Assembly: GCF_900177425.1 (NCBI RefSeq)
Contig: NZ_LT840184.1
Span: 395,838 to 419,837 of the forward strand
Direction of reading: 5' to 3'
Length of the DNA stretch: 24,000 nucleotides
DNA from: Paenibacillus uliginis N3/975
Lineage (GTDB): Bacteria; Bacillota; Bacilli; Paenibacillales; Paenibacillaceae
The position numbers and the translations under genes were made by a program. The notes beneath the pieces are model-generated. The model was not told the DNA's origin and did not search any database. It saw only the letters and a program-made list of their open reading frames with translations. The number at the start of each line of letters is the position of its first letter. Position 1 is the first letter of the stretch. Shown here piece by piece: positions 1 to 21,403 of this stretch.

Positions 1-2
1 AT

Positions 3-635
3 TTTAATCATGTAATTGCAGCAGAGAGGGAAGTCTTCGGGGATCTGAAATTTACTTCAGATAATGTGACTCAACTTTCACTGAAGAGCGGAGATATAAA
101 TATGATTGATCTTGAAACTTTATCTCCAGCACTTAATTCTGATTATTATATTGTTTTTGGAGCTAGCTACATTAAAGGGGGATTATGTGATTTTTTAGTA
201 AAGCAAGGTGCTATTAATATACATATGGGCGTATCCCCTTATTATAGAGGGAACTCGTGTAACTTTTGGGCGCTATATGATGGAAATCCCGAGCTGGTTG
301 GAGCCACTATCCATTTGCTAAGCAAAGGTTTAGATTCTGGTGATATATTGTATCATGCTTTTCCGAAACCAGAATCCATTGACCCATTTGTTCTAGGAAT
401 GAAGGCTGTAAAAAGTGCACATGATTCTCTAATAGAAAATATACAAAGTGGCATTATAAAAGAGTTAGTACCATCTAAGCAAAATAAAGAATCTGAAATT
501 AGATATACTAGAAATAAAGATTTCCATGATGAAGTAGCTAAAGACTATCTTGAGAACTTGCCTGCCCCAGTAGACCTTAAAAATAAGCTTGAGCAAAGAG
601 ATATAAATCAATTTTTATATCCCTATGTGGGATGA
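3..635 (+). CDS. Formyltransferase-family protein (sugar N-formyltransferase-like), 5' end cut by the window edge
   Basis: The reading frame is open from nt 3 to the TGA at 633-635, so the GTG at 66 in the ORF track is probably not the true start. The motifs INIHMGVSPYYRG and GATIHLLSKGLDSGDIL fit the N..H...D catalytic signature (HxSLLPxxRG type) of the formyltransferase N-terminal domain. The motif lies only ~70 codons from the window edge, so the N-terminus is missing. Confidence 0.6.
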   Translation, partial: FNHVIAAEREVFGDLKFTSDNVTQLSLKSGDINMIDLETLSPALNSDYYIVFGASYIKGGLCDFLVKQGAINIHMGVSPYYRGNSCNFWALYDGNPELVGATIHLLSKGLDSGDILYHAFPKPESIDPFVLGMKAVKSAHDSLIENIQSGIIKELVPSKQNKESEIRYTRNKDFHDEVAKDYLENLPAPVDLKNKLEQRDINQFLYPYVG

Positions 636-800
636 GCTATTGAAGTTATCTTGTACTCATCGTAGCCGATGTGGGTAGATGGGGAATGCATATTGAACTT
701 GTACATCTATCTTTGGTGAACATACGTGATTAGTGATTTGCAGGAAAATGTTGTGGCCGTTGGGTGTCCAGCGAAAGTAATTAAATTACGTAAGGGATGA
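636..800 (+). pseudogene. Relic of the 3' end of a left-handed beta-helix (hexapeptide) sugar N-acetyltransferase (EpsM/PglD-like)
   Basis: One frame reads AIEVILYSS*PMWVDGECILNLYIYLW*TYVISDLQENVVAVGCPAKVIKLRKG*. The last ~26 codons match the canonical ..VVAVGxPAKVIK.. C-terminus of hexapeptide acetyltransferases. There are two in-frame stops (TAG 663-665, TGA 717-719) and no N-terminal part. The relic stops 6 nt before the aminotransferase start, as in epsM-epsN or pglD-pglE type pairs. Confidence 0.5.
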
Positions 801-806
801 GACGAC

Positions 807-1955
807 ATGCTAGAACGTGGTGACAGAATTTATTTATCTTCTCCGCACATGAGTGGGTTGGAGCAGCAATATATCTCGGAAGCTTTTGAAACGAACTGGA
901 TAGCTCCTTTGGGTAGAAATGTGGATTGCTTTGAGAAGGAACTTGCTCATTATGTAGGTAGCGAAGGAGCCTTAGCTCTAAGCTCCGGCACTGCTGCAAT
1001 TCATCTGGCACTAATCCTGCTCAATGTTGGTATGGGTGATGTTGTTTTCTGTTCATCGCTGACTTTTGTTGCAAGTGCCAACCCTATTCTGTATCAAGGA
1101 GCAACCCCTGTCTTTATCGACTCTGAGCCCGAAACCTGGAATATGTCGCCTAAAGCTTTGGAGAGGGCACTTAAAGATTATGCTGCTAAAGGACAGAAGC
1201 CAAAGGCAGTCATTGTAGTCAATCTGTACGGGCAAAGCGCGGATTATGACCAGATTAAATCGATATGTGATGAATATGAAGTTCCTATTGTCGAAGATGC
1301 TGCGGAGTCCCTGGGAGCTAGTTATAAAGATAAAAAAAGCGGCACCATCGGTAAGTTTGGTGTTTTTTCTTTTAATGGCAATAAAATTATAACTACCTCG
1401 GGTGGAGGAATGTTAGTTTCGGATGATGCTGGGGCTCTGAATAAGGCGAGGTTTCTGGCTACTCAAGCCAAAGATAAAGCGGTACATTATCAGCATAGTG
1501 TAGTAGGTTTCAATTACCGTTTAAGTAACATTTCAGCAGGAATAGGTAGAGGGCAATTACAGGTTTTAAATGAACGGATTCGAAAAAAACGTGAAATTTT
1601 TAAAGTTTATTATAATGAGTTATCTCGTATTCCGGGAATTGAGTTTATGCCGGATGCACCTTATGGAAATTCTACACGTTGGTTAAGTACTATAGTTCTG
1701 GACCAGGAAGCCTTTAATATTGGTGTATATGAAGTAATTGCTCACCTTGAAAAGCATAACATTGAGTCTAGGCCTGTATGGAAACCACTTCACTTGCAGC
1801 CTTTATTTTCGGATGCCGAATTTTATTTGGATAAAGAGGTCGGGGATGTAAGTTATGATTTGTTTACGAAAGGCATCTGTTTACCTTCAGGAACAAGAAT
1901 GTCGTTAGAAGAACAAATGTATGTAATCAAGCTTATTAAGGATTACATTGGTTAA
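807..1955 (+). CDS. DegT/DnrJ/EryC1/StrS-family PLP-dependent sugar aminotransferase (EpsN/PglE-like, nucleotide-4-keto-6-deoxy-sugar aminotransferase)
   Basis: 382 aa. The N-terminus IYLSSPHMSGLEQQYISEAFETNWIAPLG resembles B. subtilis EpsN from memory, as do AAIHLAL and EDAAESLG. The PLP-lysine context is FSFNGNKIITTSGGGML. The SD AAGGGA lies 9 nt upstream of the ATG. Confidence 0.9.
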   Translation: MLERGDRIYLSSPHMSGLEQQYISEAFETNWIAPLGRNVDCFEKELAHYVGSEGALALSSGTAAIHLALILLNVGMGDVVFCSSLTFVASANPILYQGATPVFIDSEPETWNMSPKALERALKDYAAKGQKPKAVIVVNLYGQSADYDQIKSICDEYEVPIVEDAAESLGASYKDKKSGTIGKFGVFSFNGNKIITTSGGGMLVSDDAGALNKARFLATQAKDKAVHYQHSVVGFNYRLSNISAGIGRGQLQVLNERIRKKREIFKVYYNELSRIPGIEFMPDAPYGNSTRWLSTIVLDQEAFNIGVYEVIAHLEKHNIESRPVWKPLHLQPLFSDAEFYLDKEVGDVSYDLFTKGICLPSGTRMSLEEQMYVIKLIKDYIG

Positions 1956-1990
1956 TTTTAGAGGCAGAATAACCTACTTGGAGGTAGTAC

Positions 1991-3544
1991 ATGTTTCATC
2001 TTGGGGAAATTATTCAGATCACAAACAATGATTGCGATAATTTATTAGGTATTGTCTTAGAGAAAGTAAGAAATGGCGTTGTTGTATTACGAGCTGATCC
2101 TGTAATTTATGAGCAAGATTCGGATTGTGTTTTACTTTTAGGCGACCATACGGATATCCCGGTTAATATCACCGAAAAATTGTATGTAGATGAAAAGGAT
2201 GCAGTGCGTGTTGGGAACGTAGATATTAATACATTCGAGAAAATTAAAAGAAAAGAAATTTTATCTAATGTAAATGAATTTTATCATCTGTTTCATTGGT
2301 CTGAAAAACCGTTCATCCCAGAGGAAACATCACTTTCATATGGTGGAAGAGTATATGATGAAAGAGAAATGATGAATTTAGTAGATTCTTCATTAGATTT
2401 TTGGTTGACTTCAGGGCGGTATAGCAAACAATTTGAGAAAGAATTCGCCAAGTATATTGGCGTAAAATACGCTTTGCTTACGAATTCAGGATCATCGGCT
2501 AATCTATTGGCGTTTTCAGCATTAACCTCACCTAAACTCGGTGATCGTAGAATAAAACCTGGTGATGAAGTTATTACAGTAGCTGCCGGTTTTCCTACAA
2601 CCGTTACACCAATGGTTCAAAATGGAGCCATCCCTGTTTTTATTGATGTAGATTTAGGTACATATAACATCCTACCGGATCTTATCGAAGGTGCTATAAC
2701 ATCTAAAACAAAGGCCATCATGATCGCTCATACGATGGGAAATCCCTTTGACTTAAAAAGGGTAATGGAACTGGCAAACCACTATAAATTATGGGTTATT
2801 GAAGATAATTGTGATGCTCTGGGATCACGTTATGACGACCGAATTACAGGAACATTCGGTCATATTGCAACATCAAGCTTTTACCCTCCTCATCATATGA
2901 CAATGGGCGAAGGTGGAGCAGTTTATACTAATGACCCGCTTTTAAAAATGATTATTGAATCCTTCAGAGATTGGGGAAGGGATTGTTGGTGTCCGTCGGG
3001 TTGCGATAACACTTGCAAAAAACGTTTCGGTTGGGAGCTAGGGACCCTTCCTTACGGTTATGACCATAAATATACTTATTCTCACATTGGCTACAATCTG
3101 CGCGTAACGGATATGCAAGCCGCTATTGGTTTAGAACAGTTAAAGAAAGTTCCTAAATTTATTCAAAGACGTATTCATAACTTTAATCGTTTATTTGAAG
3201 GTTTACGCGATTTGGAGCAATACTTCATACTCCCTAAAGCTACAGATCATTCTCAGCCAAGCTGGTTTGGTTTTATTTTAACTTTAAAAGATGATGCAGG
3301 ATTCACCCGAAAAGACATTGTAGATTATCTTGAAGCACGTAAAATACAAACCCGCATGCTTTTTGCAGGTAACCTTACAAGACAGCCAGCATTTCAAGGT
3401 GTGAATTATCGTATACATGGTGATCTGAAAAATACCGATAAGATATTAAAAGATACATTTCTCATTGGGGTCTATCCAGGCTTAACTGACGAAATGATTG
3501 ATTACATTGTTTTTACAATTAGGGAGTTTATCAGCACGATTTAA
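1991..3544 (+). CDS. rfbH: CDP-6-deoxy-L-threo-D-glycero-4-hexulose 3-dehydrase (E1; RfbH/DdhC) with an extra ~80-aa N-terminal domain
   Basis: NSGSSANLLAFSALTSPKLGDRRIKPGDEVITVAAGFPTTV is near-identical to the RfbH consensus. SFYPPHHMTMGEGG has His in place of the PLP lysine, the E1 hallmark. The Cys-rich DCWCPSGCDNTCKKRFG motif fits the Fe-S site. A strong SD (GGAGG) sits 6 nt before the ATG at 1991. At 517 aa it is longer than the ~437 aa typical of RfbH. Confidence 0.87.
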   Translation: MFHLGEIIQITNNDCDNLLGIVLEKVRNGVVVLRADPVIYEQDSDCVLLLGDHTDIPVNITEKLYVDEKDAVRVGNVDINTFEKIKRKEILSNVNEFYHLFHWSEKPFIPEETSLSYGGRVYDEREMMNLVDSSLDFWLTSGRYSKQFEKEFAKYIGVKYALLTNSGSSANLLAFSALTSPKLGDRRIKPGDEVITVAAGFPTTVTPMVQNGAIPVFIDVDLGTYNILPDLIEGAITSKTKAIMIAHTMGNPFDLKRVMELANHYKLWVIEDNCDALGSRYDDRITGTFGHIATSSFYPPHHMTMGEGGAVYTNDPLLKMIIESFRDWGRDCWCPSGCDNTCKKRFGWELGTLPYGYDHKYTYSHIGYNLRVTDMQAAIGLEQLKKVPKFIQRRIHNFNRLFEGLRDLEQYFILPKATDHSQPSWFGFILTLKDDAGFTRKDIVDYLEARKIQTRMLFAGNLTRQPAFQGVNYRIHGDLKNTDKILKDTFLIGVYPGLTDEMIDYIVFTIREFISTI

Positions 3545-3562
3545 CGACAGGGAGGGTTAGTT

Positions 3563-4360
3563 ATGAAGGTGGTAATTTTGGCAGGTGGGTACGGTACAAG
3601 AATCAGTGAAGAATCTCATCTTAAGCCAAAACCAATGATAGAAATAGGGCATAGACCTATACTGTGGCATATTTTAAAGATCTATTCTAGCTACGGGTTT
3701 AATGATTTTATAATATGTTTGGGTTATAAAGGTTTTGTCATTAAGGAGTATTTCGCTAACTACTTCCTGCATGAATCGGATGTGACATTCGATTTTAGAA
3801 ACGGAAATCAGAATATAACGCATAATCATTCTGCCGAACCTTGGAAGGTAACCTTGGTGAATACCGGTATTGATACCATGACTGGTGGAAGGATAAAACG
3901 AATCCAACCTTACATTAGTAACGAGCCGTTTTTCCTTACTTACGGTGATGGAGTTTCAAACGTAGATATTCATAAACTTTTAGATTTTCATAAAATGAAT
4001 GGAAGACTTGCTACGGTAACCTCTACCCAGCCCGAGGGTCGTTTTGGAATTCTAGATATCGATGATCATAGCCAGGTAAGAGGATTTCAGGAAAAACCTA
4101 AAGGCGACCATAGCTGGATAAACGGGGGATTCTTTGTACTTCAACCTGAAATATTTAATTATATTGAGGGCGACCATACGGTTTTTGAAAAAGAACCACT
4201 AGAACAACTAGCCAAGGATGGAGAACTTACCGCATATAAACATAACGGTTTTTGGCATCCGATGGATACGTTACGCGACAAAAATTATCTTGAAAGTTTA
4301 TGGGCTAATAATAAAGCCCCTTGGAAAGTATGGGAAGATAATCGGGTGATGTCATTATGA
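3563..4360 (+). CDS. rfbF: Glucose-1-phosphate cytidylyltransferase (RfbF/DdhA)
   Basis: MKVVILAGGYGTRISEESHLKPKPMIEIGHRPILWHILKIYSSYGFNDFIICLGYKG is the classic RfbF N-terminus. The length (265 aa) is typical. The SD GGAGGG lies 6 nt upstream. Confidence 0.94.
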   Translation: MKVVILAGGYGTRISEESHLKPKPMIEIGHRPILWHILKIYSSYGFNDFIICLGYKGFVIKEYFANYFLHESDVTFDFRNGNQNITHNHSAEPWKVTLVNTGIDTMTGGRIKRIQPYISNEPFFLTYGDGVSNVDIHKLLDFHKMNGRLATVTSTQPEGRFGILDIDDHSQVRGFQEKPKGDHSWINGGFFVLQPEIFNYIEGDHTVFEKEPLEQLAKDGELTAYKHNGFWHPMDTLRDKNYLESLWANNKAPWKVWEDNRVMSL

Positions 4361-5424
4361 AAGATTTTTGGAACGGGAAAAGAGTTTTCCTTACGGGACA
4401 TACAGGTTTTAAGGGATCATGGTTGAGTATGTGGCTATCCATGCTTGGAGCGCAGGTTAAAGGTTATGCATTGGAACCTCCAACTGAGCCCAGTTTGTTT
4501 GAACTGTGTAAAGTAAAGGAGTTGCTAGTTCAGTCTGTTATCAAGGATATAAGGGACTTAGATTCGCTGAAGAGAGAAATGGTAGATTTTCAGCCGGAGA
4601 TAGTCATTCACATGGCAGCTCAACCTTTAGTTAGGGAGTCTTATAGTATTCCGGTAGATACTTACTCTATAAATGTTATGGGTACGGTAAACCTGTTTGA
4701 GGCAGTTCGTGTGACGAAAAGCGTAAAATCAGTTGTCAATGTGACCACGGATAAATGTTATGAAAATAAAGAATGGGTGTGGGGTTACAGGGAAGGGGAA
4801 ACTTTAGGAGGATATGATCCTTATTCCAGCAGCAAGGCTTGCGCGGAGTTAGTAACGGATGCTTATAGAAATTCTTACTTTCCAGCAGAGTATTATGATC
4901 TTCACGGCGTGGCGATTGCCACAGTAAGAGCGGGAAATGTGATCGGTGGTGGGGATTGGGCTAAAGATCGATTGATTCCTGATTGTATGCAATCGCTAAT
5001 ATTAGGAGAGCCCATACACATCAGAAATCCGCATTCCATCAGACCATGGCAACATGTCCTTGAACCATTGAGTGGATACTTGATGATAGCCCAAAGATTG
5101 TTTGAAGACGGAACAGCATACGAAGGAGCATGGAACTTTGGCCCTAACGATCAAGATACAAGATCGGTCGAATGGATTGTCCAGAACTTGTGCGACAAGT
5201 GGAAAGGAAGTCAGGGTTATGTTGTTGAACAGGGTGATCACCCACATGAAGCGGCTTTTTTGAAGTTGGACTGTTCTAAATCCAGAATGAAACTAGGTTG
5301 GTCTCCTCGCTGGGAGTTGGGTGAAGCCCTAGATTATATTATTGAATGGACTGAGGCTTTTAAGAACGGTGAAGGTCTTAGTGCTGTATGCTTTAACCAA
5401 ATTTCGAGATACGAGGGTTTTTAA
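4357..5424 (+). CDS. rfbG: CDP-glucose 4,6-dehydratase (RfbG/DdhB)
   Basis: FWNGKRVFLTGHTGFKGSWLSMWL is the Rossmann motif. YSSSKACAE is the SDR YxxxK motif. The length (355 aa) is typical. An ATGA start/stop overlap with rfbF indicates translational coupling. Confidence 0.94.
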   Translation: MKDFWNGKRVFLTGHTGFKGSWLSMWLSMLGAQVKGYALEPPTEPSLFELCKVKELLVQSVIKDIRDLDSLKREMVDFQPEIVIHMAAQPLVRESYSIPVDTYSINVMGTVNLFEAVRVTKSVKSVVNVTTDKCYENKEWVWGYREGETLGGYDPYSSSKACAELVTDAYRNSYFPAEYYDLHGVAIATVRAGNVIGGGDWAKDRLIPDCMQSLILGEPIHIRNPHSIRPWQHVLEPLSGYLMIAQRLFEDGTAYEGAWNFGPNDQDTRSVEWIVQNLCDKWKGSQGYVVEQGDHPHEAAFLKLDCSKSRMKLGWSPRWELGEALDYIIEWTEAFKNGEGLSAVCFNQISRYEGF

Positions 5425-5433
5425 CGTGGTTTA

Positions 5434-5484
5434 ATTAATGGTAAAAGTATTATCACAGGTGCAGCCGGTTTTGTTGGTACTTTA
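5434..5484 (+). pseudogene. Relic of the N-terminus of an extended-SDR (NAD-dependent epimerase/dehydratase) gene
   Basis: The spacer between rfbG and the ThDP gene translates in frame 1 as INGKSIITGAAGFVGTL. This is the TGxxGxxG Rossmann motif found at the extreme N-terminus of extended SDRs. It has no in-frame start; the ATG at 5438 is one nt out of frame. The motif breaks off after ~17 codons into the SD and start of the next gene. Confidence 0.45.
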
Positions 5485-5499
5485 GGGAGGGGAAAACTT

Positions 5500-7275
5500 G
5501 TGAAAATGAGAGTTGCAGATTATATTACTAACGCATTATATGATGCAGGTGGAAAGCATGTCTTTTTAGTAACTGGTGGTATGATTATGCACCTGACAGA
5601 TGCTTTATACCAGCATGAAAAACAAACTTATGTATGTTGTCATCATGAACAAGCTGTAGCAATGGCAGCTGAAGCTTATGGTAGATATACTGGTGAATTA
5701 GGTGTTGCATATGTAACGGCAGGCCCGGGTGCACTTAACACGATAACAGGAGTAGCGGGTGCATTTATTGATTCATCTCCATCAATTATTGTTGCCGGAA
5801 ACTCAAAAGTTTCATTAGCAAAGATTAAAGGACCTAGGCAATTCCCTCTTCAAGGGTTCGATTCCCTGCCGATATTTGATCGGATCACTAAATATGCCGT
5901 GATGCTGGATGATATATCTAAAGTAAAGTATGAAGTTCAAAAATGTATTCATATAGCGAAAAGTCATCGTGTGGGCCCGGTATATTTAGAGGTTCCAGTA
6001 GATTTACAGGGTGCAACATTTGATCCTGATCTTTATGAAGACTACGTGCCTGAAACAACAGTAGAAGTATGTAGTAACACAGATATTCAAATTGAAATGG
6101 TTAAGGAAGCACTACTAACTAGTAAGCGTCCTTGTCTATTAGTTGGAGCGGGAGTTCGGCTAGCAGGAGCCATAGAAAAATTCATGACTTTTATTAGAAA
6201 AACTGGTATTCCGGTGTTAACTTCACGACTCGGAATGGATCTAATCGATTATCACCATCATCAATTTGTTGGAAGACCTGGAACATATGGTGATCGACCT
6301 GCAAACTTCACAGTCCAGAATGCTGATTTGCTAATTGTAGTGGGTTGTAGGTTAGGAATTGGTTTAGTAGGCTATGACTTCGAGGATTTTGGAAAGAAAG
6401 CTAAAAAAATAATAGTAGATATAGATGACTTAGAATTGAGTAAACCATCGGTTATTCCTGATATTGCAATTAAAGAAGATGCTAAAGTTTTCTTTGACAA
6501 AATGAATGCGGTTATTGATAACGGTAGCTTTAATTATTCTGCTTGGGTGGATCAAACACAACTATGGAAAAGAAAATATCCTGTAAACTTACCTGAATAT
6601 TCCAATGAAACACAGGGTATTAACTCATATCGTGCAATGACCCACTTTTCAGAACGTGTAGGTAAAGATTCTACCTTTGTAGTTGATACAGGTTCTTGTT
6701 TTCACGTTCACGCACAGGCATTTAAAGTGAAACTAGAACAACGCCACATAATTACTGGTGGTCTTTCAACAATGGGATATACTCCAGCTGCGATTGGAGT
6801 TTCTGTTGCTAAGGGTGGGAATGAAGTATATTGCATAACTGGAGACGGGTCATTCCAAATGAACTTACAGGAATTGCAAACTATCGCACATTATAAACTT
6901 CCAATAAAATTTTTTCTACTTAACAACGGTGGATATTTATTAATACGACATACACAAAACAACTTTATGGAAGGCCGTTATATTGGCGAGAGTAGTGATT
7001 CTGGTGTAGGCTTTGCAAGCTTAGAAAAAGTAGCTGAAACATTTGGCTTAGGGTTCATGAAAATTTCAAATCTAAAAGAATTAGATGAGAAAATAGACGA
7101 TTTCATTCACTATAAAGGAGCTATGATATGTGAAGTTATGACTCCGTCTAATCAGCTTCTCATTCCGAGAGTTGCATCTGAAAAGTTAGCAGATGGAACG
7201 ATGGTATCTAAAGCATTCGATGATATGTTTCCTTTCATGTCTAGGGAAGAGTATTACTCAAATTGTTTAGATTAA
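5500..7275 (+). CDS. Thiamine-diphosphate-dependent enzyme, acetolactate-synthase large-subunit-like (YerE-like candidate sugar C-branching carboligase)
   Basis: 591 aa. The N-terminal Pyr domain reads VADYITNALYDAGGKHVFLVTGG...HEQAVAMAAEAYGR. The ThDP-binding motif is ITGDGSFQMNLQELQTIAHYKLPIKFFLLNNGGY. The SD GGGAGGGG lies 7 nt before the GTG at 5500; an ATG at 5506 is an alternative start. Confidence 0.85.
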   Translation: MKMRVADYITNALYDAGGKHVFLVTGGMIMHLTDALYQHEKQTYVCCHHEQAVAMAAEAYGRYTGELGVAYVTAGPGALNTITGVAGAFIDSSPSIIVAGNSKVSLAKIKGPRQFPLQGFDSLPIFDRITKYAVMLDDISKVKYEVQKCIHIAKSHRVGPVYLEVPVDLQGATFDPDLYEDYVPETTVEVCSNTDIQIEMVKEALLTSKRPCLLVGAGVRLAGAIEKFMTFIRKTGIPVLTSRLGMDLIDYHHHQFVGRPGTYGDRPANFTVQNADLLIVVGCRLGIGLVGYDFEDFGKKAKKIIVDIDDLELSKPSVIPDIAIKEDAKVFFDKMNAVIDNGSFNYSAWVDQTQLWKRKYPVNLPEYSNETQGINSYRAMTHFSERVGKDSTFVVDTGSCFHVHAQAFKVKLEQRHIITGGLSTMGYTPAAIGVSVAKGGNEVYCITGDGSFQMNLQELQTIAHYKLPIKFFLLNNGGYLLIRHTQNNFMEGRYIGESSDSGVGFASLEKVAETFGLGFMKISNLKELDEKIDDFIHYKGAMICEVMTPSNQLLIPRVASEKLADGTMVSKAFDDMFPFMSREEYYSNCLD

Positions 7276-7309
7276 TTATTGTTTTAATCAAGAGGTATTA
7301 ATAAAAATT

Positions 7310-8218
7310 ATGGGGAATAACATCATGATTGATAGTAGATTGAAAGTGGCTATCTTGGGAAGCGGGAATATAGGGACTGATCTTCTTATGAAGACGATTA
7401 GATCACCTTACCTGACATGCACTTATTTTGTTGGCAGGCATATAGATTCTCTTGGAATACAAAAAGCAATGAGAAAAGGAATAAGAGTATCAGATCAAAG
7501 TATTGATGCATTAATTAATGATCCTGATAGTTTTGATCTAGTGTTCGATGCAACCTCAGCAAAAAGCCATAAAGCGCATGCTCCTATCCTTAAGGAGATG
7601 GGGAAGGTTGTAATCGATTTAACTCCATCCAACATCGGAGAAAAGTGTGTTCCTGCCGTTAATATTGATCGATGTATTCATTACGACAATGTGAATATGG
7701 TTACATGTGGGGGACAAGCATCAATTCCGTTAGCTTTTGCTATTGGTCAAACACAAACAGATGTTGAATACATTGAAGTTGTTTCTAGTATTGCTTCTAA
7801 AAGTGCTGGCCCAGCTACTCGGAATAACCTGGATGAGTATATTGAAACGACAGAAAAAGGGATTAGCAAGTTTTCAAATTGTAACCAAGTAAAAGCTATA
7901 CTCAACTTGAATCCTGCTGAACCATGTATTGATATGCAAACCACTGTGTTTGCTAAGGTAAAAAGCCCTCGGTTAGTGAATTTAACTAAATATGTAAATG
8001 AAATGGTTGAAAAAATGCGAAATTACGTACCGGGCTATCAATTGCTTATTCCTCCAACAATTGAGAATGAAAGAATTGTAATTATGGTAAAAGTTCAGGG
8101 CCTGGGGGATTTCTTGCCTGCTTATGCTGGTAATTTAGATATCATTAATTGTGCAGCTATTGCTATGGCAGAGAAACATGCATTAGCTAGAAATGTTTCA
8201 AATGAGAGAGGAGTATAG
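7310..8218 (+). CDS. Acetaldehyde dehydrogenase (acetylating, CoA-dependent), DmpF/MhpF family
   Basis: KVAILGSGNIGTDLLMKTIRS is the NAD-binding motif. NVNMVTCGGQASIP is the catalytic Cys motif of the DmpF family. The length (~300 aa) fits. The ATG at 7325 (SD GGGGA, 8-nt spacer) is a better start than 7310. Confidence 0.85.
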   Translation: MGNNIMIDSRLKVAILGSGNIGTDLLMKTIRSPYLTCTYFVGRHIDSLGIQKAMRKGIRVSDQSIDALINDPDSFDLVFDATSAKSHKAHAPILKEMGKVVIDLTPSNIGEKCVPAVNIDRCIHYDNVNMVTCGGQASIPLAFAIGQTQTDVEYIEVVSSIASKSAGPATRNNLDEYIETTEKGISKFSNCNQVKAILNLNPAEPCIDMQTTVFAKVKSPRLVNLTKYVNEMVEKMRNYVPGYQLLIPPTIENERIVIMVKVQGLGDFLPAYAGNLDIINCAAIAMAEKHALARNVSNERGV

Positions 8219-8219
8219 C

Positions 8220-9227
8220 ATGCATCAAGTACTAATTAGTGACCCTACTTTGCGTGATGGATCACATGCTGTTCGTCATCAAATAACATTTGAACATATG
8301 ATGTTGTACGCTGAACTAGCTGAGGCTGCGGGGATACCCATTCTAGAAGTTGGGCATGGTAACGGATTAGGGGCCTCATCCTTGCAATTGGGTAAAAGCC
8401 TTGTATCAGACGCCCATATGTTAATAGGCTGTAGAGAAAAGTTGGTTAATACTAAGTTGGGTATCCATGTAATACCAGGTTTTGCGACTATTAATAAAGA
8501 CTTGAAAAATGCAATAGATATTGGTGTAAACGTTGTTCGTGTAGCTTCTCACTGTACTGAGGCTGATATTACGAAGTGTCATATCGAGTATGCAAGAGAA
8601 AGAGACGTTGAGGCATTTGGAGTGCTAATGATGTCGCATATGGCATCGGCGACAAAGTTGCTTGAAGAAGCAAAAAAAATGCAAAGTTATGGTGCTCAAG
8701 CTGTTATCCTTATGGATTCTGCGGGAGCCTATTTCCCTAGCGATGTTAGCGAGAGAATAACTAGATTAGTTCATGATCTTGAGATTCCCGTAGGATTTCA
8801 TGCGCACAATAATTTAGGGATGGCGATTGCCAATTCGATTACTGCTCTTGAGAGTGGGGCTGTAATTCTAGATGGAACAATTAGAGGATTCGGTGCTGGA
8901 GCAGGAAATGCTCAACTTGAATTGTTAGTTGCAGTGTTAGAGAGACTGGGATATAAAACAGGTATTGATCTATATAAATTGTTAGATGCTGCTGATATTG
9001 CTGAATCACATTTCGCCAAGGTCCCATATGTGAGTTCAACAAATATTGTGAGTGGACTTTCAGGTGTTTTCTCTGGGTTTGCTAAGCCAGTCGAGAGAAT
9101 ATCTAGGGAGTTTGGTTTAGATCCTAAAGATATCTTCTTCGAATTAGGGCGTAGAAAGGTTGTCGCAGGTCAAGAAGACATAATCCTCGAAGTTGCAGTA
9201 TCATTATCACAAAAGTCGGGTGAGTAA
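8220..9227 (+). CDS. 4-hydroxy-2-oxovalerate aldolase, DmpG/MhpE/BphI family (class II pyruvate aldolase)
   Basis: ISDPTLRDGSHAVRHQ, HAHNNLGMAIANSITALESGA and DGTIRGFGAGAGNAQLELLVAVLERLGYKTGIDLYKLLDAAD match the DmpG catalytic and communication-domain motifs. The start is re-set to the ATG at 8220 (SD GAGGAG, 6-nt spacer), 1 nt after the DmpF-like stop. The track start at 8193 overlaps the upstream gene. Confidence 0.87.
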   Translation: MHQVLISDPTLRDGSHAVRHQITFEHMMLYAELAEAAGIPILEVGHGNGLGASSLQLGKSLVSDAHMLIGCREKLVNTKLGIHVIPGFATINKDLKNAIDIGVNVVRVASHCTEADITKCHIEYARERDVEAFGVLMMSHMASATKLLEEAKKMQSYGAQAVILMDSAGAYFPSDVSERITRLVHDLEIPVGFHAHNNLGMAIANSITALESGAVILDGTIRGFGAGAGNAQLELLVAVLERLGYKTGIDLYKLLDAADIAESHFAKVPYVSSTNIVSGLSGVFSGFAKPVERISREFGLDPKDIFFELGRRKVVAGQEDIILEVAVSLSQKSGE

Positions 9228-9231
9228 TGAT

Positions 9232-10176
9232 ATGTTGAAAAAGAATCATGTTAATATTGCTATCATAGGAGCAACAGGCCATATTGCGAAAAACCTGATT
9301 GTTGGATTAAGTAATGAACGAAAATATAACTTATTATTATTTGCTCGTAATCATAACAAACTTAATCAATTTATTAATTGTTGTGTTAGTAATAAAAAAA
9401 ATATTTCAATTCATTATTTTGATAATTTCTTGCTAGGTGAATTTGATGTAATTATTAATTGTATCGGCATTGGTAATCCTACTGTCTTAACTCAGTCATA
9501 TGCACATATATTTAGCATAACAGAGGAATTTGATAATTTAATATTAGAGTACCTGCATAAGAACACGAGTACTTTATATATTAACTTCAGTAGCGGTGCA
9601 GCATATGGAGCTGACTTTTATTCACCAGCAACAGTTGATAAACATGCTTTATTTAGCATTAATAATATAAGTACAAATGATTACTACTCGATCGCGAAGC
9701 TGAATTCTGAGAAAAAGCACAGAGCATATTCTAACTTTAGCATCATAGATTTAAGAATCTTTGGCTTCTTTAGTAGATATATAGATTTGAAAAATGCTTA
9801 TTTTATGAATGACTTACTTCGAAGTGTGAGAGATGGAGTAAAATTCATAACCAGCAGTGATGATATGTTTAGGGACTACATACATCCCATTGATTTATTG
9901 AATATTATACAAAAGTGTATTGAGTTACAAACAGTTAACGATGTATTTGATGTGTATAGTCTGAATCCGGCTTCTAAGTTTGAAATTGTGGATCTTTTTA
10001 AAAAGACATACAACATTGAGGTACAAGTTCAGGATGTTCGTTTTGATTCTCCAACTGGAAATAAGTTAAATTATTACTCAGAAAACTATAACTTAGAGAG
10101 TATAGGTTATACACCTAGATATACTTCACTCGAAACAGTTAGTAGTGAAACCAAAGCTATCTTCAACTTGGTGTGA
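9232..10176 (+). CDS. NAD(P)-dependent SDR-family oxidoreductase (epimerase/reductase; candidate sugar or branch ketoreductase)
   Basis: The N-terminal Rossmann motif is NIAIIGATGHIAKNLI. The YxxxK motif is YYSIAKLNSE. The start is re-set to the ATG at 9232, 4 nt after the aldolase stop. The gene is extremely AT-rich and its specificity cannot be determined from sequence. Confidence 0.7.
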   Translation: MLKKNHVNIAIIGATGHIAKNLIVGLSNERKYNLLLFARNHNKLNQFINCCVSNKKNISIHYFDNFLLGEFDVIINCIGIGNPTVLTQSYAHIFSITEEFDNLILEYLHKNTSTLYINFSSGAAYGADFYSPATVDKHALFSINNISTNDYYSIAKLNSEKKHRAYSNFSIIDLRIFGFFSRYIDLKNAYFMNDLLRSVRDGVKFITSSDDMFRDYIHPIDLLNIIQKCIELQTVNDVFDVYSLNPASKFEIVDLFKKTYNIEVQVQDVRFDSPTGNKLNYYSENYNLESIGYTPRYTSLETVSSETKAIFNLV

Positions 10177-10368
10177 TATCCCTATATCATCCATAATCTC
10201 TAGATTGGAGACCGTTGGTTGGAGAAACCTCTAGTAAGAGGTCAGTCATTGTTTCGATGAGTTAATTTATGCAACTAACTTGAAGCATTAGTGTTATTTA
10301 GGAAACAGTCTTATCGAATTTACAAAATCAATAGATCACTTGAGGTTCATTGATCTTCACTTTTATGT

Positions 10369-10416
10369 AAAGAAAGACCCGCAAGAGCGAAAAAGTCTCC
10401 TTGCGGGTCTTTCTTT
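10369..10416. terminator. Bidirectional rho-independent terminator between convergent genes
   Basis: A perfect 17-bp stem, AAAGAAAGACCCGCAAG (10369-10385) pairing with CTTGCGGGTCTTTCTTT (10400-10416), encloses a 14-nt loop. The A/T runs within the arms give a U-tract on both strands. It sits between the SDR stop (10176) and the minus-strand GT2 stop (10424). Confidence 0.8.
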
Positions 10417-10423
10417 GCATATT

Positions 10424-12286
10424 TTATTGTAACTTTGCGTTAATAAAGCTGAAGCCTTCTTCAATTAATTTCAAATCCTTCTGATAATGGAGGCGGTCAC
10501 TACTTACATTTGTTTTATAGAATTGTTCATTAGAACAGAATTGATACGCCTTTTCATTCAATTCCCGTAGGTCCAAATTTGTTTTACTGTAAAATGCTTG
10601 AATTGAGATGGCAACTAGAATACAGGTTTTTGAACAAAGCTGCAAGTACATCTTTCTACGAAGGTCAATATCTTCTTTATATATTTCTAAATCTCTAAAA
10701 AACACTGCGAAATCTTCGTGTTGCTCCAATCTTCCTTCAATCGATGCATAGTAAGGTATGATTAATTTCTCTATTTCAACTTCATCGCAGTCCGTTTTTT
10801 CAGCCAGACCTTCGTGTATTAGTACTAGTTCTGTACTCTGTACATGACCATATTGGCATAACAGCATCTCCCACACCATATGAGGATACCAAAAGCATGC
10901 ACTATTACTTATATTAACTTTGATATATTGAATACCATTAGCTTTTTGAAGAAGTTTATTACTATATATAATACCTGACATGTAATTAGAGGACAGCATA
11001 AATTGTAACATTGCTTCTTTACCCATAGATGCAATTTTATTGGATTGTTTACTTTGTGATGAAGTTGATGCTCTAAAAATGGATAGTGTCTCTTTAGATT
11101 TATTTAGACTATCCATAATTATACTGAGAACTTTGGAATCGATTTGATCCTCATCGCTCAATAGTAAAATGAATTCTCCCTTTGCTAGCTCGCACACTTT
11201 ACAACAGTTCAGCGCGTATCCTTGGTTTTCTTCAAAGGCAAAGTATGTTAATCTTGCATCTTCAATTTCACTAATTTTTTCATAGTATGCTTTTGTTTCA
11301 TTTTGAGTCCCATTGTTGGATAATATAATTTCAATTTCTTCATTGTAATGGAATTGCAGTAACTGGATGATGTTTTCATATGCTTTGTGTCCTCTGTTAT
11401 AGCTTGGGATACAAATGCTCAGTAGTATGCGATTTCCGTTTCTATGTTCTTTACTTATACGAGTGTTGTGGATATCTGAAAGAACATTCTTGCTTACATC
11501 AGATTTGTCCTCTGTCAGGTCAATTATATTATAAGGAAGTATTGAGTTAGTAGTTAACAGGTACTCCTTCAATTTATATAGATTGTCGAAAATCATTATA
11601 TTTGAAATATCGTCTAACAACGATCCTTGTAAGCAGGATAAAAACTTGTCTATCTGATTTATTATTATGTATGACTTTTTGTTAAGTTTCCTTGTAGCGT
11701 TAGTAATGGCTACAATATTATTCCAATCCCATTCTTCAAGTACTAAAAAGTCAGAAAAAGCATCTGAAATGGTTACGGAGGGTATCTGTTGATATTGATA
11801 TAATGATATTTTTTCTTTTATCAGCTGCTGCTCTTTATCATACAAGTAGTATTCATTCTGAACGCCCGTTGGAAGCAACCAAAAAGATAACTCTTGAAAT
11901 GGTAGGCTATTCTCGATATATAGATATGAATTTTTATTTAAGTATTCAATGTTAGCCTCATAGTTATCTTGGAATTCATTTAAATTAGGCTCGATAAAAG
12001 CTTCATAGAGCACTTTTTCTATTTCCTCTCTTGAATATCCATTTTCTTGTGCTTTAATGAGCATCATAAAAAATGAATCAAACTCAGATACTCTGAACAG
12101 GAAATATGCAAATGAGAGGTAGACCCTTGCCAGTAAATAATGGGAGTTGCTGTTCTCTCTTTCTAGTTCTTCAATAAGCTCGATATAACTATTGTACGCC
12201 TCATCCACCAACCCGGTATTAACCTGATCATCTATTTTTACTAAAGCTTGATTTATTCGTTGTTCTAATAGATTGTCATTTATCAT
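10424..12286 (-). CDS. Multidomain glycosyltransferase family 2 protein (central GT-A domain flanked by uncharacterised N- and C-terminal regions)
   Basis: 620 aa. The central segment LSICIPSYNRGHKAYENI...IILSNNGTQNET...ENQGYALNCCKVCELAKGEFILLLSDEDQID is a typical GT2 core with a DxD-like SDED. About 290 aa N-terminal (helical-repeat-like start) and ~220 aa C-terminal match nothing I recognise. The SD AGAGGA lies upstream of the ATG on the minus strand. Confidence 0.7.
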   Translation of the reverse strand: MINDNLLEQRINQALVKIDDQVNTGLVDEAYNSYIELIEELERENSNSHYLLARVYLSFAYFLFRVSEFDSFFMMLIKAQENGYSREEIEKVLYEAFIEPNLNEFQDNYEANIEYLNKNSYLYIENSLPFQELSFWLLPTGVQNEYYLYDKEQQLIKEKISLYQYQQIPSVTISDAFSDFLVLEEWDWNNIVAITNATRKLNKKSYIIINQIDKFLSCLQGSLLDDISNIMIFDNLYKLKEYLLTTNSILPYNIIDLTEDKSDVSKNVLSDIHNTRISKEHRNGNRILLSICIPSYNRGHKAYENIIQLLQFHYNEEIEIILSNNGTQNETKAYYEKISEIEDARLTYFAFEENQGYALNCCKVCELAKGEFILLLSDEDQIDSKVLSIIMDSLNKSKETLSIFRASTSSQSKQSNKIASMGKEAMLQFMLSSNYMSGIIYSNKLLQKANGIQYIKVNISNSACFWYPHMVWEMLLCQYGHVQSTELVLIHEGLAEKTDCDEVEIEKLIIPYYASIEGRLEQHEDFAVFFRDLEIYKEDIDLRRKMYLQLCSKTCILVAISIQAFYSKTNLDLRELNEKAYQFCSNEQFYKTNVSSDRLHYQKDLKLIEEGFSFINAKLQ

Positions 12287-12499
12287 GAGTATTCATCCTC
12301 TTTTTTAGAATATAATATATGTCGGCATTATCTTGCTAGTATTAAAGAGGTCTCGTAGATTTAAGGGTACTTCTCGCCGTTTTCCACGAAAATCAATGTT
12401 GTTACATTTTTCCCCCACACCTGTTTCGCCTCCCCCTCATCAGGTTAAGAACCAATGACACCGTTTTCATTTTCCGTAAAACTCATACCTTTAACTCCA

Positions 12500-12856: not shown

Positions 12857-12886
12857 AGACTCCGGTGAATGCCGGAGTCTTTTTTT
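12857..12886 (+). terminator. Rho-independent terminator of cspB
   Basis: A 9-bp stem, AGACTCCGG (12857-12865) pairing with CCGGAGTCT (12872-12880), has a 6-nt loop and is followed by T6 (12881-12886). Confidence 0.85.
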
Positions 12887-13409
12887 GTTGCGTGCCCAGA
12901 AGCACGCATTATCTAGTTGGTGAAAGTCCAACCGAAGGAGGGTCCAAGCCACCTTCGTAGCTAGGACACCTGCGTATGGAGAAATCCATGCGTAGAAGCG
13001 TGTCGACGAAAGTATCTGTCAGTGACAGGGCGAGCAATATGCCAGGCCGTAACATAAAGTGAATCCTGCCGCGTCGTCAAAAGGGCCTCGCAAGAGGGAA
13101 AAGAGGGAGCCGAGTCTTGAGCAAATGGGCGAAGGCCAAGGAAGCTGTAAAGAACTTGGAGCAACAGCGAAGAATCCTCCGGCGTAAGGGGATCGGCATG
13201 GGATAAAAGATAATGCAGTGAACTGGGGAGACCCTCCCCTGCACAGAAAAAAAAACTGTAAAAGGATGCTCTATAAGCCAAAAGTGAAATGAGTTATTCG
13301 CAGGAAGGGAGTCCGAGGGGTTCATAGTACTGAAAAACTGCAGGACAACATAACCTGCGGGAGGGAAGGAACCCTGCTTTGTTCATGTTTCTTAAGGAGG
13401 TACGAGTCA

Positions 13410-14701
13410 GTGAATGCCAACAGGCTAACAACACCAAAGGAAAACGTTCAACAACTCCAAGAGAAACTAGGTCATGCGGCCAAGGAAAACAAAAAGCGCA
13501 GATTTCACGCGCTGTACGATAAGGTATATCGGATGGATATATTGTGGGAAGCATGGCGAAGAGTGCGAGCCAATAAAGGTTCCGCAGGAGTAGATGGCCA
13601 GACCCTAAAAGAGATTGAAGAAAAAGGGGAATTCGTCTTTATCCATGAATGTCATCGGCTCCTTAAAGAAGGTGCTTACCACCCGCAACCTGTACGGAGA
13701 CACTACATCCCAAAGAAGGATGGAAAGCAAAGACCGTTAGGCATACCAACCATCCGAGATCGCGTCATACAGATAGCGACTAAACTGGTCATGGAACCAA
13801 TTTTGAAGCGGATTTTCAAGAAGTATCATTTGGTTTTCGCCCCAAACGGGGTGCAAAAGGAGCGCTTGACCGCATCCGTAAAGCCTGTAACCGTAAAGGA
13901 AATTGGGTGGTCGACGTCGACATCCAAGGCTACTTTGACAACATTAATCAAGAGAAACTAATGAAACTGGTAGAAATGCGAATCAGTGACAGACGAGTGT
14001 TGAAACTAGTACGAAAGTGGCTAACGGCAGGAGTCATGGAAGAAGGAACAGTAAGGCGCTCGGATCTTGGGACACCACAAGGTGGTGTCATATCACCGTT
14101 ATTGGCAAACATCTATTTAAACTACTTCGATGTGCTATGGGAAAAGCATGGCAGTAAACTAGGTGAACTAACACGATATGCGGATGACTTTGTGGTTGTT
14201 TGCAAGACGAAGAAAGATGCGGAGCATACATACAAGCTCATACGCACCATAATGGAACGCCTAGAATTAACGCTGCACCCGACAAAAACTCGAATCGTGG
14301 GATTATGGACAGGAGAAAAAGGTTTTGACTTTCTTGGAATGCACCATCGCAAGGCGAGAGCAGAAACGGCTAGAAGTCAAGGGTATTACACGACCCAACA
14401 ATGGTTAACGAAGAAGGCTGAAAAGCGAATTCGGGAAGTTATTAAAGAGCGGTTAGCGCCACCGAGTATGCGAAAGATATCTGTTCAAGAACATATTGAA
14501 TGGCTCAATCCCAAAATACAAGGATGGCGTAACTATTATTATACTTCTTATAGCCAACGGAAGTTAGCAAAGCTAGATTGGTACATTATGCAACAGCTCA
14601 GCCGATGGTACGCTAAAAAAAGACAACGGAGAAGATGGATGAGTTCGCTTGCCGAAGTGAAATTCATGACCAAACAATATGGATTAAAGACGCTATTGTA
14701 A
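13410..14701 (+). pseudogene. Group II intron-encoded reverse transcriptase/maturase, interrupted by a single 1-nt frameshift
   Basis: The ORFs at 13410-13961 and 13907-14701 are two halves of one protein. The first half carries RT domains 0-2 (KGSAGVDGQTLKEIE, RPLGIPTIRDRVIQ). The second carries RT 3-7 (VDVDIQGYFDNINQEKL, GTPQGGVISPLLANIYL, the YADDFVV catalytic motif) and the X/maturase domain. Reading ATT TTT GAA instead of the observed ATT TTG AA at 13800-13807 restores EPIFEADFQEVSFGFRPKRGA. The start is a GTG with SD AAGGAGG 9 nt upstream. Confidence 0.88.
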
Positions 14702-14731
14702 TCTGCATGCCCATGAAAGACGAACATCGGA

Positions 14732-14764
14732 AAGCCGTATGAGGGAAAACCTCACGTACGGTTT
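14732..14764 (+). ncRNA. Group II intron domain V (catalytic hairpin)
   Basis: The sequence is AGCCGUAU-GAGG-GAAAA-CCUC-AC-GUACGGUU. It has the AGC catalytic triad, the two-nt AC bulge and a GAAA-type loop, matching the domain V consensus. Confidence 0.85.
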
Positions 14765-14976
14765 GATGAGGAGGGGCTGAAAAAAAACTTCAGCCCTTTA
14801 CTCTAGTGGTTTAAGCAGAAATAAAGAAATGTTTTGAGGGTTTCAAAATAAAAAAGAATACGCTTTTCAGCACCAAATCCCCTTCAAATAAGGGTCTCGC
14901 AACTGTCCCTGAACGGGTTCCTTTATGCTCTATACGAAAGTACTTTTAAGCTCGATAACATACACAATTTCGACTT

Positions 14977-15005
14977 TTTACATGGGCTTAACAAAGTGTT
15001 ATAAT
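14977..15005 (+). promoter_or_regulatory. Sigma-A-type promoter for hpf
   Basis: TTTACA (14977-14982), a 17-nt spacer, then TATAAT (15000-15005) with an upstream TG (extended -10). It lies 25 nt before the hpf ATG. Confidence 0.55.
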
Positions 15006-15029
15006 GAAGGTGCAAAGGAGGAGTGCCCT

Positions 15030-15593
15030 ATGCAATACAGTATTCGAGGTCAACAAATTGAAGTGACCGAAGCTTTAAAGGACTACGTTGACAAGAAGCT
15101 CAACAGACTTGAGAAGTATTTTGATGCACCCCTTACCTCTGAAGGATACGTAACACTAAGTGTCATTCGAGGATTGCACACGGTGGAAGTGACCATTCCG
15201 CTGCCAGGCGTTGTCCTGCGGGCGGAAGATCGAAGCGACGATATGTACGCTTCCATGGACGCTGTTGTGGACAAATTGGAACGACAGATCCGCAAACACA
15301 AGACGAAGTTAAACCGCAAGTTCCGCCAGGAAGGTAGTCTGAAGACGCTGTTTGTGGAGAATGGAGCCGCAACGGGTTCCGTAGCTGTCCAACATGAGGA
15401 ACACGACGAAGATGAATTGGAAGTAGTCCGTACGAAGCGTTTCACCATGAAACCGATGGATGTGGAAGAGGCCATTTTGCAAATGAACATGGTCGGTCAT
15501 AATTTCTTCGTATTCACCAACATTGATTCACAAGAAGTGAATGTCGTTTACAAACGTGATGACGGAAAGTACGGTTTAATCGAGAGGGATTAG
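15030..15593 (+). CDS. hpf: Ribosome hibernation-promoting factor, long form (HPF/YvyD)
   Basis: MQYSIRGQQIEVTEALKDYVDKKLNRLEKYF begins the N-terminal S30AE/RaiA domain. The C-terminal dimerisation domain reads VVRTKRFTMKPMDVEEAILQMNMVGHNFFVFTN. The SD AAGGAGG precedes the ATG at 15030; the track start at 14925 has no SD. It lies upstream of secA, as yvyD does in B. subtilis. Confidence 0.93.
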   Translation: MQYSIRGQQIEVTEALKDYVDKKLNRLEKYFDAPLTSEGYVTLSVIRGLHTVEVTIPLPGVVLRAEDRSDDMYASMDAVVDKLERQIRKHKTKLNRKFRQEGSLKTLFVENGAATGSVAVQHEEHDEDELEVVRTKRFTMKPMDVEEAILQMNMVGHNFFVFTNIDSQEVNVVYKRDDGKYGLIERD

Positions 15594-15670
15594 GCTCACC
15601 GAACTCTTACCGGAAATGTAGCTGTACTCGTACAATCCGAATTTACGGCTTAACATGAAAAGTGGAAGAC

Positions 15671-15706: not shown

Positions 15707-15737
15707 ATACGTATATAAGAAGAGATCGCTTAATGTG

Positions 15738-19835: not shown

Positions 19836-19853
19836 GAGGAGAATGTAACCATC

Positions 19854-21358: not shown

Positions 21359-21403
21359 GCGAGCACACGATATAATGATAACTAATCTATTGGGGGTGTC
21401 GAT

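Follow-up and report, generated by a model that had tools for sequence, protein, structure and literature searches.

The 24,000-nt stretch of the Paenibacillus uliginis N3/975 genome analysed here (contig NZ_LT840184.1, positions 395,838 to 419,837; hereafter the window) contains a cassette of seven same-strand genes. Three of them encode enzymes for a CDP-linked 4-keto-3,6-dideoxyhexose, and the other four encode a thiamine diphosphate (ThDP)-dependent carboligase, an acylating acetaldehyde dehydrogenase, a pyruvate aldolase, and a short-chain dehydrogenase/reductase (SDR) (Table 1). A preliminary description of this DNA, made without database searches, had proposed the cassette as a candidate pathway for an undescribed C-branched sugar. 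Here, protein families were assigned by comparing NCBIfam bit scores with the curated cutoffs, supplemented with Pfam matches. The earlier assignments of RfbF, RfbG, and RfbH hold, each protein scoring above its cutoff.

Table 1. Features of the seven-gene cassette and its immediate surroundings
Feature	Position	Strand	Evidence
RfbH/DdhC-type E1, CDP-4-keto-6-deoxy-D-glucose 3-dehydrase, 517 aa	1991-3544	+	NF011936, 737 bits (cutoff 423)
RfbF/DdhA glucose-1-phosphate cytidylyltransferase	3563-4360	+	TIGR02623, 439 bits (cutoff 300)
RfbG/DdhB CDP-glucose 4,6-dehydratase	4357-5424	+	TIGR02622, 508 bits (cutoff 278)
YerE/ErwE-like ThDP carboligase, 591 aa	5500-7275	+	Three TPP domains (Pfam); under all acetolactate synthase cutoffs
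DmpF/BphJ/ErwJ-like acylating acetaldehyde dehydrogenase	7310-8218	+	TIGR03215, 371 bits (cutoff 282)
DmpG/BphI/ErwI-like class II pyruvate aldolase, 335 aa	8220-9227	+	TIGR03217 (4-hydroxy-2-oxovalerate aldolase), 382 bits (cutoff 286)
Extended SDR, YerF/ErwF-like candidate, 314 aa	9232-10176	+	Pfam Epimerase only
Bidirectional intrinsic-terminator hairpin	10369-10416		-37.8 kcal/mol, z = -9.8
620-aa protein with central GT2 domain	10424-12286	-	PF00535 at residues 290-416
LegC-family aminotransferase	807-1955	+	TIGR04181, 384 bits (under cutoff of 420)
Formyltransferase-like gene	66-635	+	Same-strand run upstream

The coordinates of the seven open reading frames (ORFs), with their overlaps and gaps, are as previously described; for example, the stop codon of rfbF and the start codon of rfbG share an ATGA at 4357-4360. 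The start of the aldolase gene at 8220 gives a protein equal in length to those called in two Paenibacillus relatives, P. dendritiformis (locus L081) and the locus designated L083, and the SDR read from 9232 has the same length as a database entry (P0121) with which it is 100% identical. For the ThDP enzyme, the ORF begins at a GTG at 5500 and encodes 591 aa, the length that is also seen in its homologues, while the NCBI call begins at an ATG at 5506 and gives 589 aa (P0001). Like the SDR, the ThDP enzyme matches a protein of P. uliginis N3/975 at 100% identity.

The hairpin that follows the cassette is strong: none of 200 shuffled sequences folds equally well. Since it lies between convergent genes and is flanked by T-runs on both sides, we consider it to be a bidirectional terminator. 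This closing hairpin, together with the lack of any terminator-like site seen inside the seven-gene run, agrees with the previous view of the run as one operon. A single unit that starts at 1991 is a more conditional reading; because same-strand genes continue upstream (807-1955 and 66-635), the transcription unit may begin before that point.

Between rfbG and the ThDP gene is a gap of 75 nt, in which positions 5440-5478, read in the frame of the ThDP gene, give GKSIITGAAGFVG. This stretch is similar to the Rossmann motif at the N terminus of an SDR. L083 has a degenerate version of it and P. dendritiformis has none, and it may be either a relic of a deleted gene or a chance resemblance.

The carboligase and the aldolase-dehydrogenase pair

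The ThDP enzyme contains the N, M, and C TPP domains of Pfam and carries the catalytic Glu50, a GDG-X24-NN motif, and a DTGSCFHV motif. Its score of 354.6 bits on TIGR00118 is below the cutoff of 538.35, and it is also under every other NCBIfam cutoff for acetolactate synthases. Among the proteins of known structure, the best match is JanthE (8rph; 386 bits, residues 2-583), followed by PpYerE (5ahk; 259 bits) and by plant acetohydroxyacid synthases (about 208 bits). By these scores the enzyme is a YerE-like sugar-branching carboligase rather than a true acetolactate synthase, as the preliminary description had supposed. That description had also regarded YerE as the only characterised enzyme of its kind in such a cluster; in fact, ErwE, MMAR_2332, and MyGE (PMC9306805) as well as JanthE (PMC12247030) have been characterised, and a 2025 review (PMC12247030) cites a computational survey in which over 200 clusters of the YerE-like type were examined in silico (Krug et al. 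2024).

Of these, ErwE belongs to the gene set that is most relevant here. The erwiniose cluster of Pectobacterium atrosepticum SCRI1043, found starting from yerE and yerF, comprises ErwE (the ThDP enzyme), ErwF (a reductase), ErwI (a pyruvate aldolase, 43% similar to BphI), and ErwJ (an acetaldehyde dehydrogenase, 41% similar to BphJ), all four of which adjoin the genes for CDP-4-keto-3,6-dideoxyglucose (Steitz et al. 2022, PMC9306805). In the route proposed for erwiniose, acetyl-CoA is converted into acetaldehyde, the aldolase adds pyruvate, the ThDP enzyme attaches the branch, and the branch ketone is reduced (PMC9306805). ErwE couples 4-hydroxy-2-oxopentanoate to a ketone acceptor, selecting the R enantiomer and rejecting pyruvate (PMC9306805).

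Because the combination of ddh genes, a ThDP enzyme, a reductase, and BphI/BphJ-like proteins is that of this published cluster, the proposal of a sugar not yet tied to genes falls; the combination is moreover found in 55 of the 82 loci listed in our survey. The cassette, with all seven functions contiguous at 1991-10176, is a new example of the published erwiniose gene logic and not a new pathway. The aldolase and dehydrogenase had earlier been taken to indicate a donor longer than that of yersiniose, and they still point that way, although they are not without a described counterpart, which is ErwI/ErwJ.

The DmpF-like dehydrogenase can be aligned from end to end with the dehydrogenase chains of complexes of the DmpFG type (1nvm_B and 4jn6_B), and its TCGGQA segment, which bears the catalytic Cys in DmpF, is conserved in the aligned chains. 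It is predicted to run in the direction from acetyl-CoA to acetaldehyde. The aldolase matches both PF00682 (HMGL-like barrel) and PF07836 (DmpG communication domain), and aligns with the DmpG chain 1nvm_A at 268 bits.

For the residues of the aldolase active site, the DmpG sequence of 1nvm served as the reference in an alignment of 57 cluster-linked homologues. The window aldolase retains the equivalents of DmpG R17, D18, H21, H200, and H202. The first three are kept in 56 of the 57 sequences, the remaining one being gapped there, and the two histidines are kept in all. The position of DmpG Tyr291, corresponding to BphI Tyr290, is Phe in all 57, including the window. At that of DmpG Leu88 (BphI Leu87), 21 sequences have His, 23 have Phe, 12 have Tyr, and one has Leu. 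The offset between the two numberings we take to be one residue, which is consistent with R16/R17 and H20/H21. Thus, in place of the pair Leu87/Tyr290 that determines 4S specificity in the catabolic enzymes (BphI numbering), the window aldolase has His and Phe.

Mutants of BphI indicate what such replacements may mean. BphI itself is strictly 4S; the Y290F variant loses stereocontrol, and the double variants L87N/Y290F and L87W/Y290F use the 4R enantiomer only (PMC3962088). The signature of Phe290 with His, Phe, or Tyr at 87 is like that of these 4R-specific variants, so a 4R product is predicted, matching the enantiomer used by ErwE. The window aldolase is accordingly a candidate for condensing pyruvate with acetaldehyde to give (4R)-4-hydroxy-2-oxopentanoate.

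The size of the aldehyde must be considered separately. In BphI, a smaller residue at position 89 (L89A) favours longer aldehydes (PMC3962088), and the equivalent position of the cluster-linked aldolases is Ile, Leu, or Met. This bulky position, and the fact that the partner dehydrogenase passes the equivalog cutoff for acetylating acetaldehyde dehydrogenases, favour acetaldehyde and thus a four-carbon branch. They argue against the possibility, unlikely in our estimation, that propionaldehyde, glycolaldehyde, or some other aldehyde is condensed with pyruvate, leading to a related, undescribed sugar in place of one with the four-carbon erwiniose branch. What can be said for this possibility is that BphI-type aldolases take several aldehydes, that ErwE also accepts 4-hydroxy-2-oxobutanoate and 4-hydroxy-2-oxohexanoate (PMC9306805), that the variation at position 87 across loci could tune specificity, and that the ThDP enzymes form two clades with different gene orders.

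Related loci were collected by a genome scan with a homologue alignment, which gave at least 80 loci, and three more were added by exact look-up; the loci were then analysed by tblastn and ORF clustering. Note that DTGSCFHV was one of the two scan patterns, that the sample is biased and incomplete, and that all counts are among the matches listed. Both DmpF and DmpG are encoded in 55 of 82 loci, and in 50 of these 55 no more than 300 nt separate the pair from the ThDP gene. Of the close loci, 21 have the order ThDP-F-G and 29 the order F-G-ThDP. The former is the order in the window, and the ThDP enzymes of that order are at least 56% identical to that of the window. RfbH is present in 41, and RfbF in 44, of the 57 loci linked to an aldolase or dehydrogenase. 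All 38 loci that have the DTGSCFHV motif and at least 3 kb on each side carry DmpFG; among the loci lacking the motif, six have the pair and 13 do not. In the survey alignment, the aldolase-linked and unlinked ThDP enzymes differ at positions 397, 400, 402, 419, 423, 481, and 489, near the cofactor motifs, which would fit an altered donor specificity. The predicted reaction of the window enzyme is decarboxylation of 4-hydroxy-2-oxopentanoate and addition of the resulting acyl unit to C-4 of the CDP-ketosugar. A preference for the R enantiomer of this acid over pyruvate is indirectly favoured by the tight linkage to DmpFG and by the 4R-type residues of the aldolase.

The same observations bear on a two-carbon branching of the yersiniose type, in which the ThDP enzyme would use pyruvate and DmpFG would either extend the acetyl branch afterwards or serve an unrelated catabolism. 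YerE, the founding member of the family, does use pyruvate, and the SDR family of the window is shared with ddhDABC-ThDP-SDR loci that have no DmpFG. However, ErwE, whose cluster is the only one of this composition to have been characterised, rejects pyruvate, DmpFG directly adjoins the ThDP gene in at least 50 loci from many phyla, the aldolase has a non-catabolic active-site signature, and the DmpFG-linked ThDP enzymes differ from the unlinked ones at 397, 400, 402, and 481. We therefore regard this alternative as very improbable. A catabolic role for the DmpFG pair as such was also considered, and was rejected in view of the conserved linkage and the altered active site.

The hosts of the surveyed loci include Cyanobacteria, Nitrospirae, Geobacteraceae, Fibrobacteres, Negativicutes, Actinobacteria, Lachnospiraceae, several groups of the candidate phyla radiation (CPR), and methanogenic and Altiarchaeia archaea, which suggests that the cassette is a widely shared module extending from bacteria to archaea and CPR. 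In assemblies of archaea (Altiarchaeia, Methanoregulaceae, and Methanocellaceae) and of CPR/Patescibacteria, the ThDP gene is often accompanied by DmpFG and rfb genes (for example, L006, L008, L026, L075, and L079; CPR loci L022-L024, L027, L036, L051, and L058), and the window-type SDR also has archaeal matches. Neither Pectobacterium nor P. uliginis is among the genome-scan matches listed. The best 120 matches to each of the window ThDP enzyme, the window SDR, and the SDR of a proteobacterial YerF-like locus are mostly metagenomic and include no Pectobacterium or Yersinia.

Two types of variant loci were observed. In Paenibacillus anaericanus (L001), the ThDP gene (75% identity), DmpF, DmpG, and the SDR are present, and no rfbH, rfbF, or rfbG is found within 10 kb on either side; its acceptor-sugar genes are either elsewhere or different. 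At least 10 loci (L059 at 8807-9976, L064, L071, L072, L079, L022-L024, L036, and L006) contain a class I/II aminotransferase gene, and in L059 this gene directly precedes the ThDP gene. Roughly half of these 10 loci have no DmpFG, and the arrangement suggests that 2-oxo-acid donors are formed from amino acids by transamination.

The dehydrase, its electron supply, and the terminal reductase

In the alignment of RfbH, the iron-sulfur motif C-X57-C-X1-C-X7-C (NCDALG...DCWCPSGCDNTC) is present, and His-His stands in place of the lysine that binds pyridoxal phosphate (FYPPHHMTMGEGG). The [2Fe-2S] motif and the replacement of Lys by His are hallmarks of E1, and therefore the protein is taken to be an E1 that needs an electron donor. 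The dedicated donor is the reductase E3. As a query for this protein we used the AscD-type E3 of L059, in which the Fer2, FAD_binding_6, and NAD_binding_1 domains were verified with Pfam, and searched by tblastn; around the surveyed loci, the check covered flanks of at most 10 kb, in which ORFs of at least 110 aa were clustered.

Even with E values of up to 10 allowed, this query matched nothing in the window or in L081 and L083, so the window does not contain a complete ddhABCD core, as the preliminary description had recognised. No match was found in the 57 listed aldolase-linked loci either, and the missing dedicated E3 is a general feature of the aldolase-linked cassettes. The only other match among the listed loci is in L071, which, like L059, has the ddhDABC-ThDP-SDR layout without DmpFG. 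At least nine aldolase-linked loci (L007 at 3026-3772, L009, L011, L016, L017, L024, L044, L048, and L066) contain, beside the rfb genes, a gene for a short FNR-like reductase (NAD_binding_1 without a ferredoxin domain; median of about 235 aa), which is a candidate stand-in for E3. In the remaining loci with an aldolase, among them the window and the two relatives from Paenibacillus, neither an E3 nor an FNR-like gene is found within the searched flanks. SpnQ, an E1 homologue, works with general cellular ferredoxin/flavodoxin reductases, and by analogy a housekeeping reductase would be the likely source of electrons for RfbH.

This distribution of E3 leads to another possible reading, namely that the acceptor is not a 3,6-dideoxy sugar: lacking an E3, the cell may fail to complete the deoxygenation at C-3, and the branch would be attached to CDP-4-keto-6-deoxyglucose or some other intermediate. 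The restriction of AscD-type E3 to the two DmpFG-less loci is in its favour, and so is P. anaericanus, with its ThDP, DmpFG, and SDR genes but no rfbHFG nearby. We nevertheless consider it improbable, since the iron-sulfur motif, the catalytic His, and the equivalog score of RfbH argue for a working dehydrase, since FNR-like reductases and the example of SpnQ offer other sources of electrons, and since the absence of E3 refers to 10-kb flanks and to ORFs of at least 110 aa.

RfbH has an N-terminal extension of 88 aa (window 1991-2254) that matches no Pfam family. The RfbH proteins of P. dendritiformis (519 aa in total, the extension being poorly conserved) and of L083 (516 aa) are extended to a similar degree, and most other surveyed RfbH proteins have no extension. 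We considered whether this extension compensates for E3 and rejected the idea because the extension occurs only in the Paenibacillus lineage, shows poor conservation even within it, and has no Pfam counterpart.

The terminal SDR contains a GATGHIA nucleotide-binding motif and the YSIAK catalytic pair (YxxxK). Its ORF family was found in at least 13 sources and directly follows the ThDP gene in L059, L071, L030, and L056. This position supports a YerF/ErwF-like reduction of the side-chain ketone, which is the predicted role of the window protein and corresponds to its earlier description as a YerF analogue.

Genomic setting

The cassette is followed by a group II intron and then by hpf, secA, and prfB. 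Its G+C content is 32-42%, compared with 47-53% for the downstream housekeeping genes; over the entire glycosylation region (window 1-12000), the content is 32-42%, compared with 42-53% at 13000-24000, which contains the intron, hpf, secA, prfB, and argC. The low values fit a horizontal acquisition of the glycosylation region.

For the upstream context, we used the close relative L083, the sequence of which runs collinear to that of window 726-12384, with a nucleotide identity of 86-90%. Upstream of its cassette, L083 encodes a Maf-type (MptE-like) protein, an SDR dehydratase, a CMP-sugar synthetase, NeuB, NeuC, a PglD-like acetyltransferase, and LegC, and downstream it encodes the convergent GT2 protein and then a protein with an SLH domain. 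This neighbourhood reads as an island for the glycosylation of flagellin or surface proteins, and the position of the cassette beside Maf and nonulosonic-acid genes suggests that its product enters such a glycan. The LegC-family aminotransferase gene of the window, which ends 35 nt upstream of rfbH, probably belongs to the neighbouring nonulosonic-acid pathway and not to the cassette. The formyltransferase-like gene further upstream takes the place of the PglD-like acetyltransferase of L083 (4684-5328), in a part of the window that precedes the start of collinearity at 726; such a swap may mean that an N-formyl rather than an N-acetyl derivative of the nonulosonic acid is made.

The 620-aa GT2 protein is conserved and convergent in L083, and is a candidate, as yet unproven, for the transferase of the branched sugar. 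The regions flanking its GT2 domain match no Pfam or PDB entry, and a flagellin-binding TPR region, which we had considered, could not be demonstrated in them. In P. dendritiformis, the same seven genes (87% identity for the ThDP enzyme) are found at a different locus, beside pcrB-pcrA-ligA, and are followed by a GtrB-like GT2 and a GtrA gene; the cassette thus behaves as a transferable functional module. GtrB/DPM1-like GT2 proteins of about 315 aa are encoded in at least 34 loci (for example, L005 at 2870-3826 and L081 at 14719-16172) and small GtrA-family membrane proteins in at least eight surveyed loci, an indication that the branched sugar is passed to a polyprenyl phosphate and used on the outer side of the membrane, beyond the cytoplasm. 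The window has no GtrB/GtrA-type genes and has the 620-aa GT2 protein instead.

The group II intron is located at 12857-14807, with Rfam matches to D1-D4 at 12914-13057 and to D5-D6 at 14730-14807, and begins about 10 nt past a terminator-like hairpin with a T-run (12857-12890). Its reverse transcriptase/maturase is split between two ORFs, 13410-13961 and 13907-14701, which overlap and are read in different frames, and hence the gene is either frameshifted or affected by a sequencing error.

The proposed pathway and its relation to known systems

The analysis shows which genes are present, that their linkage is conserved, and which residues occupy the active sites; the direction of the DmpFG reaction, the specificity for donor and acceptor, the stereochemistry, and the glycosylation target are inferred. 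The reading that we favour, with a probability of roughly 0.7, is that the cassette makes a CDP-4-C-(1,3-dihydroxybutyl)-3,6-dideoxyhexose of the erwiniose type. RfbF would form CDP-glucose, RfbG would convert it into CDP-4-keto-6-deoxyglucose, and RfbH would remove the 3-hydroxyl group to give CDP-4-keto-3,6-dideoxyglucose, with electrons from a reductase encoded elsewhere. In a parallel branch, the DmpF-like enzyme would convert acetyl-CoA into acetaldehyde, which the DmpG-like aldolase would join to pyruvate, giving (4R)-4-hydroxy-2-oxopentanoate. The ThDP enzyme would then decarboxylate this acid and transfer the 3-hydroxybutanoyl unit to the C-4 ketone, and the SDR would reduce the new side-chain ketone to give erwiniose or a stereoisomer in the CDP-linked form. 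The sugar would probably be placed on flagellin or another surface glycoconjugate.

Several points weigh against this reading. The enzyme activities and the sugar product are predictions from the genes, and the likeness to ErwE, ErwF, ErwI, and ErwJ (WP_011093010 to WP_011093013) is one of described functions, by which orthology may be supposed. Since neither the window nor the two Paenibacillus relatives encode an E3, the third step has to rely on a reductase from elsewhere. The window-type SDR is found in only 10 of the listed aldolase-linked loci, and the use of the DTGSCFHV motif as a scan pattern biases the sample of loci.

If the favoured reading is correct, a pathway known only from the envelope glycolipids of Gram-negative bacteria and mycobacteria extends to a protein-glycosylation island of a Gram-positive organism. 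The natural signature of Phe290 with His, Phe, or Tyr at 87 should mark 4R-selective pyruvate aldolases, which would be useful as biocatalysts, and the motif DTGSCFHV in a ThDP enzyme predicts an adjacent aldolase. The systematic absence of E3 raises the question of how E1 is reduced in these organisms. Further work would best be directed at these three features: the island setting in a Gram-positive host, the signature of the aldolase, and the missing E3. Much more tentatively, we propose that Paenibacillus carries an erwiniose-type octose on flagellin or an S-layer-type protein and not on lipopolysaccharide (LPS), which would be the first instance of a long-branched sugar attached to a protein of a Gram-positive bacterium, and that 3-deoxygenation proceeds without a dedicated E3, as apparently in most cassettes across bacteria, archaea, and CPR.

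Among the known systems, the yersiniose A genes of Yersinia pseudotuberculosis (ddhA-D, yerE, and yerF) share with the window the route to CDP-4-keto-3,6-dideoxyglucose, the ThDP-dependent branching at C-4, and the ketoreduction. In contrast to the window, YerE uses pyruvate and forms a two-carbon branch, there is no aldolase/dehydrogenase pair, and the E3 reductase DdhD is encoded. This layout was recovered in L059 and L071, the SDRs of which are of the same family as that of the window. JanthE, the closest solved structure to the window ThDP enzyme, is about 35% identical to it and differs from it in having CDG in place of the canonical GDG motif; JanthE accepts unfunctionalised donors (PMC12247030).

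The catabolic DmpFG/BphIJ enzymes of meta-cleavage pathways have the same two-protein architecture, the DmpG communication domain, the metal-binding and catalytic residues, and the segment with the catalytic Cys. In the window, however, the predicted direction is biosynthetic, the genes are found in sugar clusters and not in aromatic-degradation operons, and the cluster-linked aldolases have Phe for Tyr290 and His, Phe, or Tyr for Leu87, unlike the 4S-specific catabolic enzymes.

The erwiniose cluster is located in an LPS O-antigen setting, whereas the host of the window is Gram-positive and the cassette is part of an apparent flagellin or surface-protein glycosylation island. The window set also differs in having no E3 gene, and its gene order is ThDP-dehydrogenase-aldolase-SDR, while accession numbering suggests ThDP-SDR-dehydrogenase-aldolase in Pectobacterium. 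Nevertheless, the functional gene set is the same in both, consisting of the CDP-3,6-dideoxy-4-ketohexose genes, the ThDP enzyme, the reductase, the aldolase, and the dehydrogenase, and the predicted donor, (R)-4-hydroxy-2-oxopentanoate, would be shared as well, the residues of the window aldolase being those that fit 4R selectivity.

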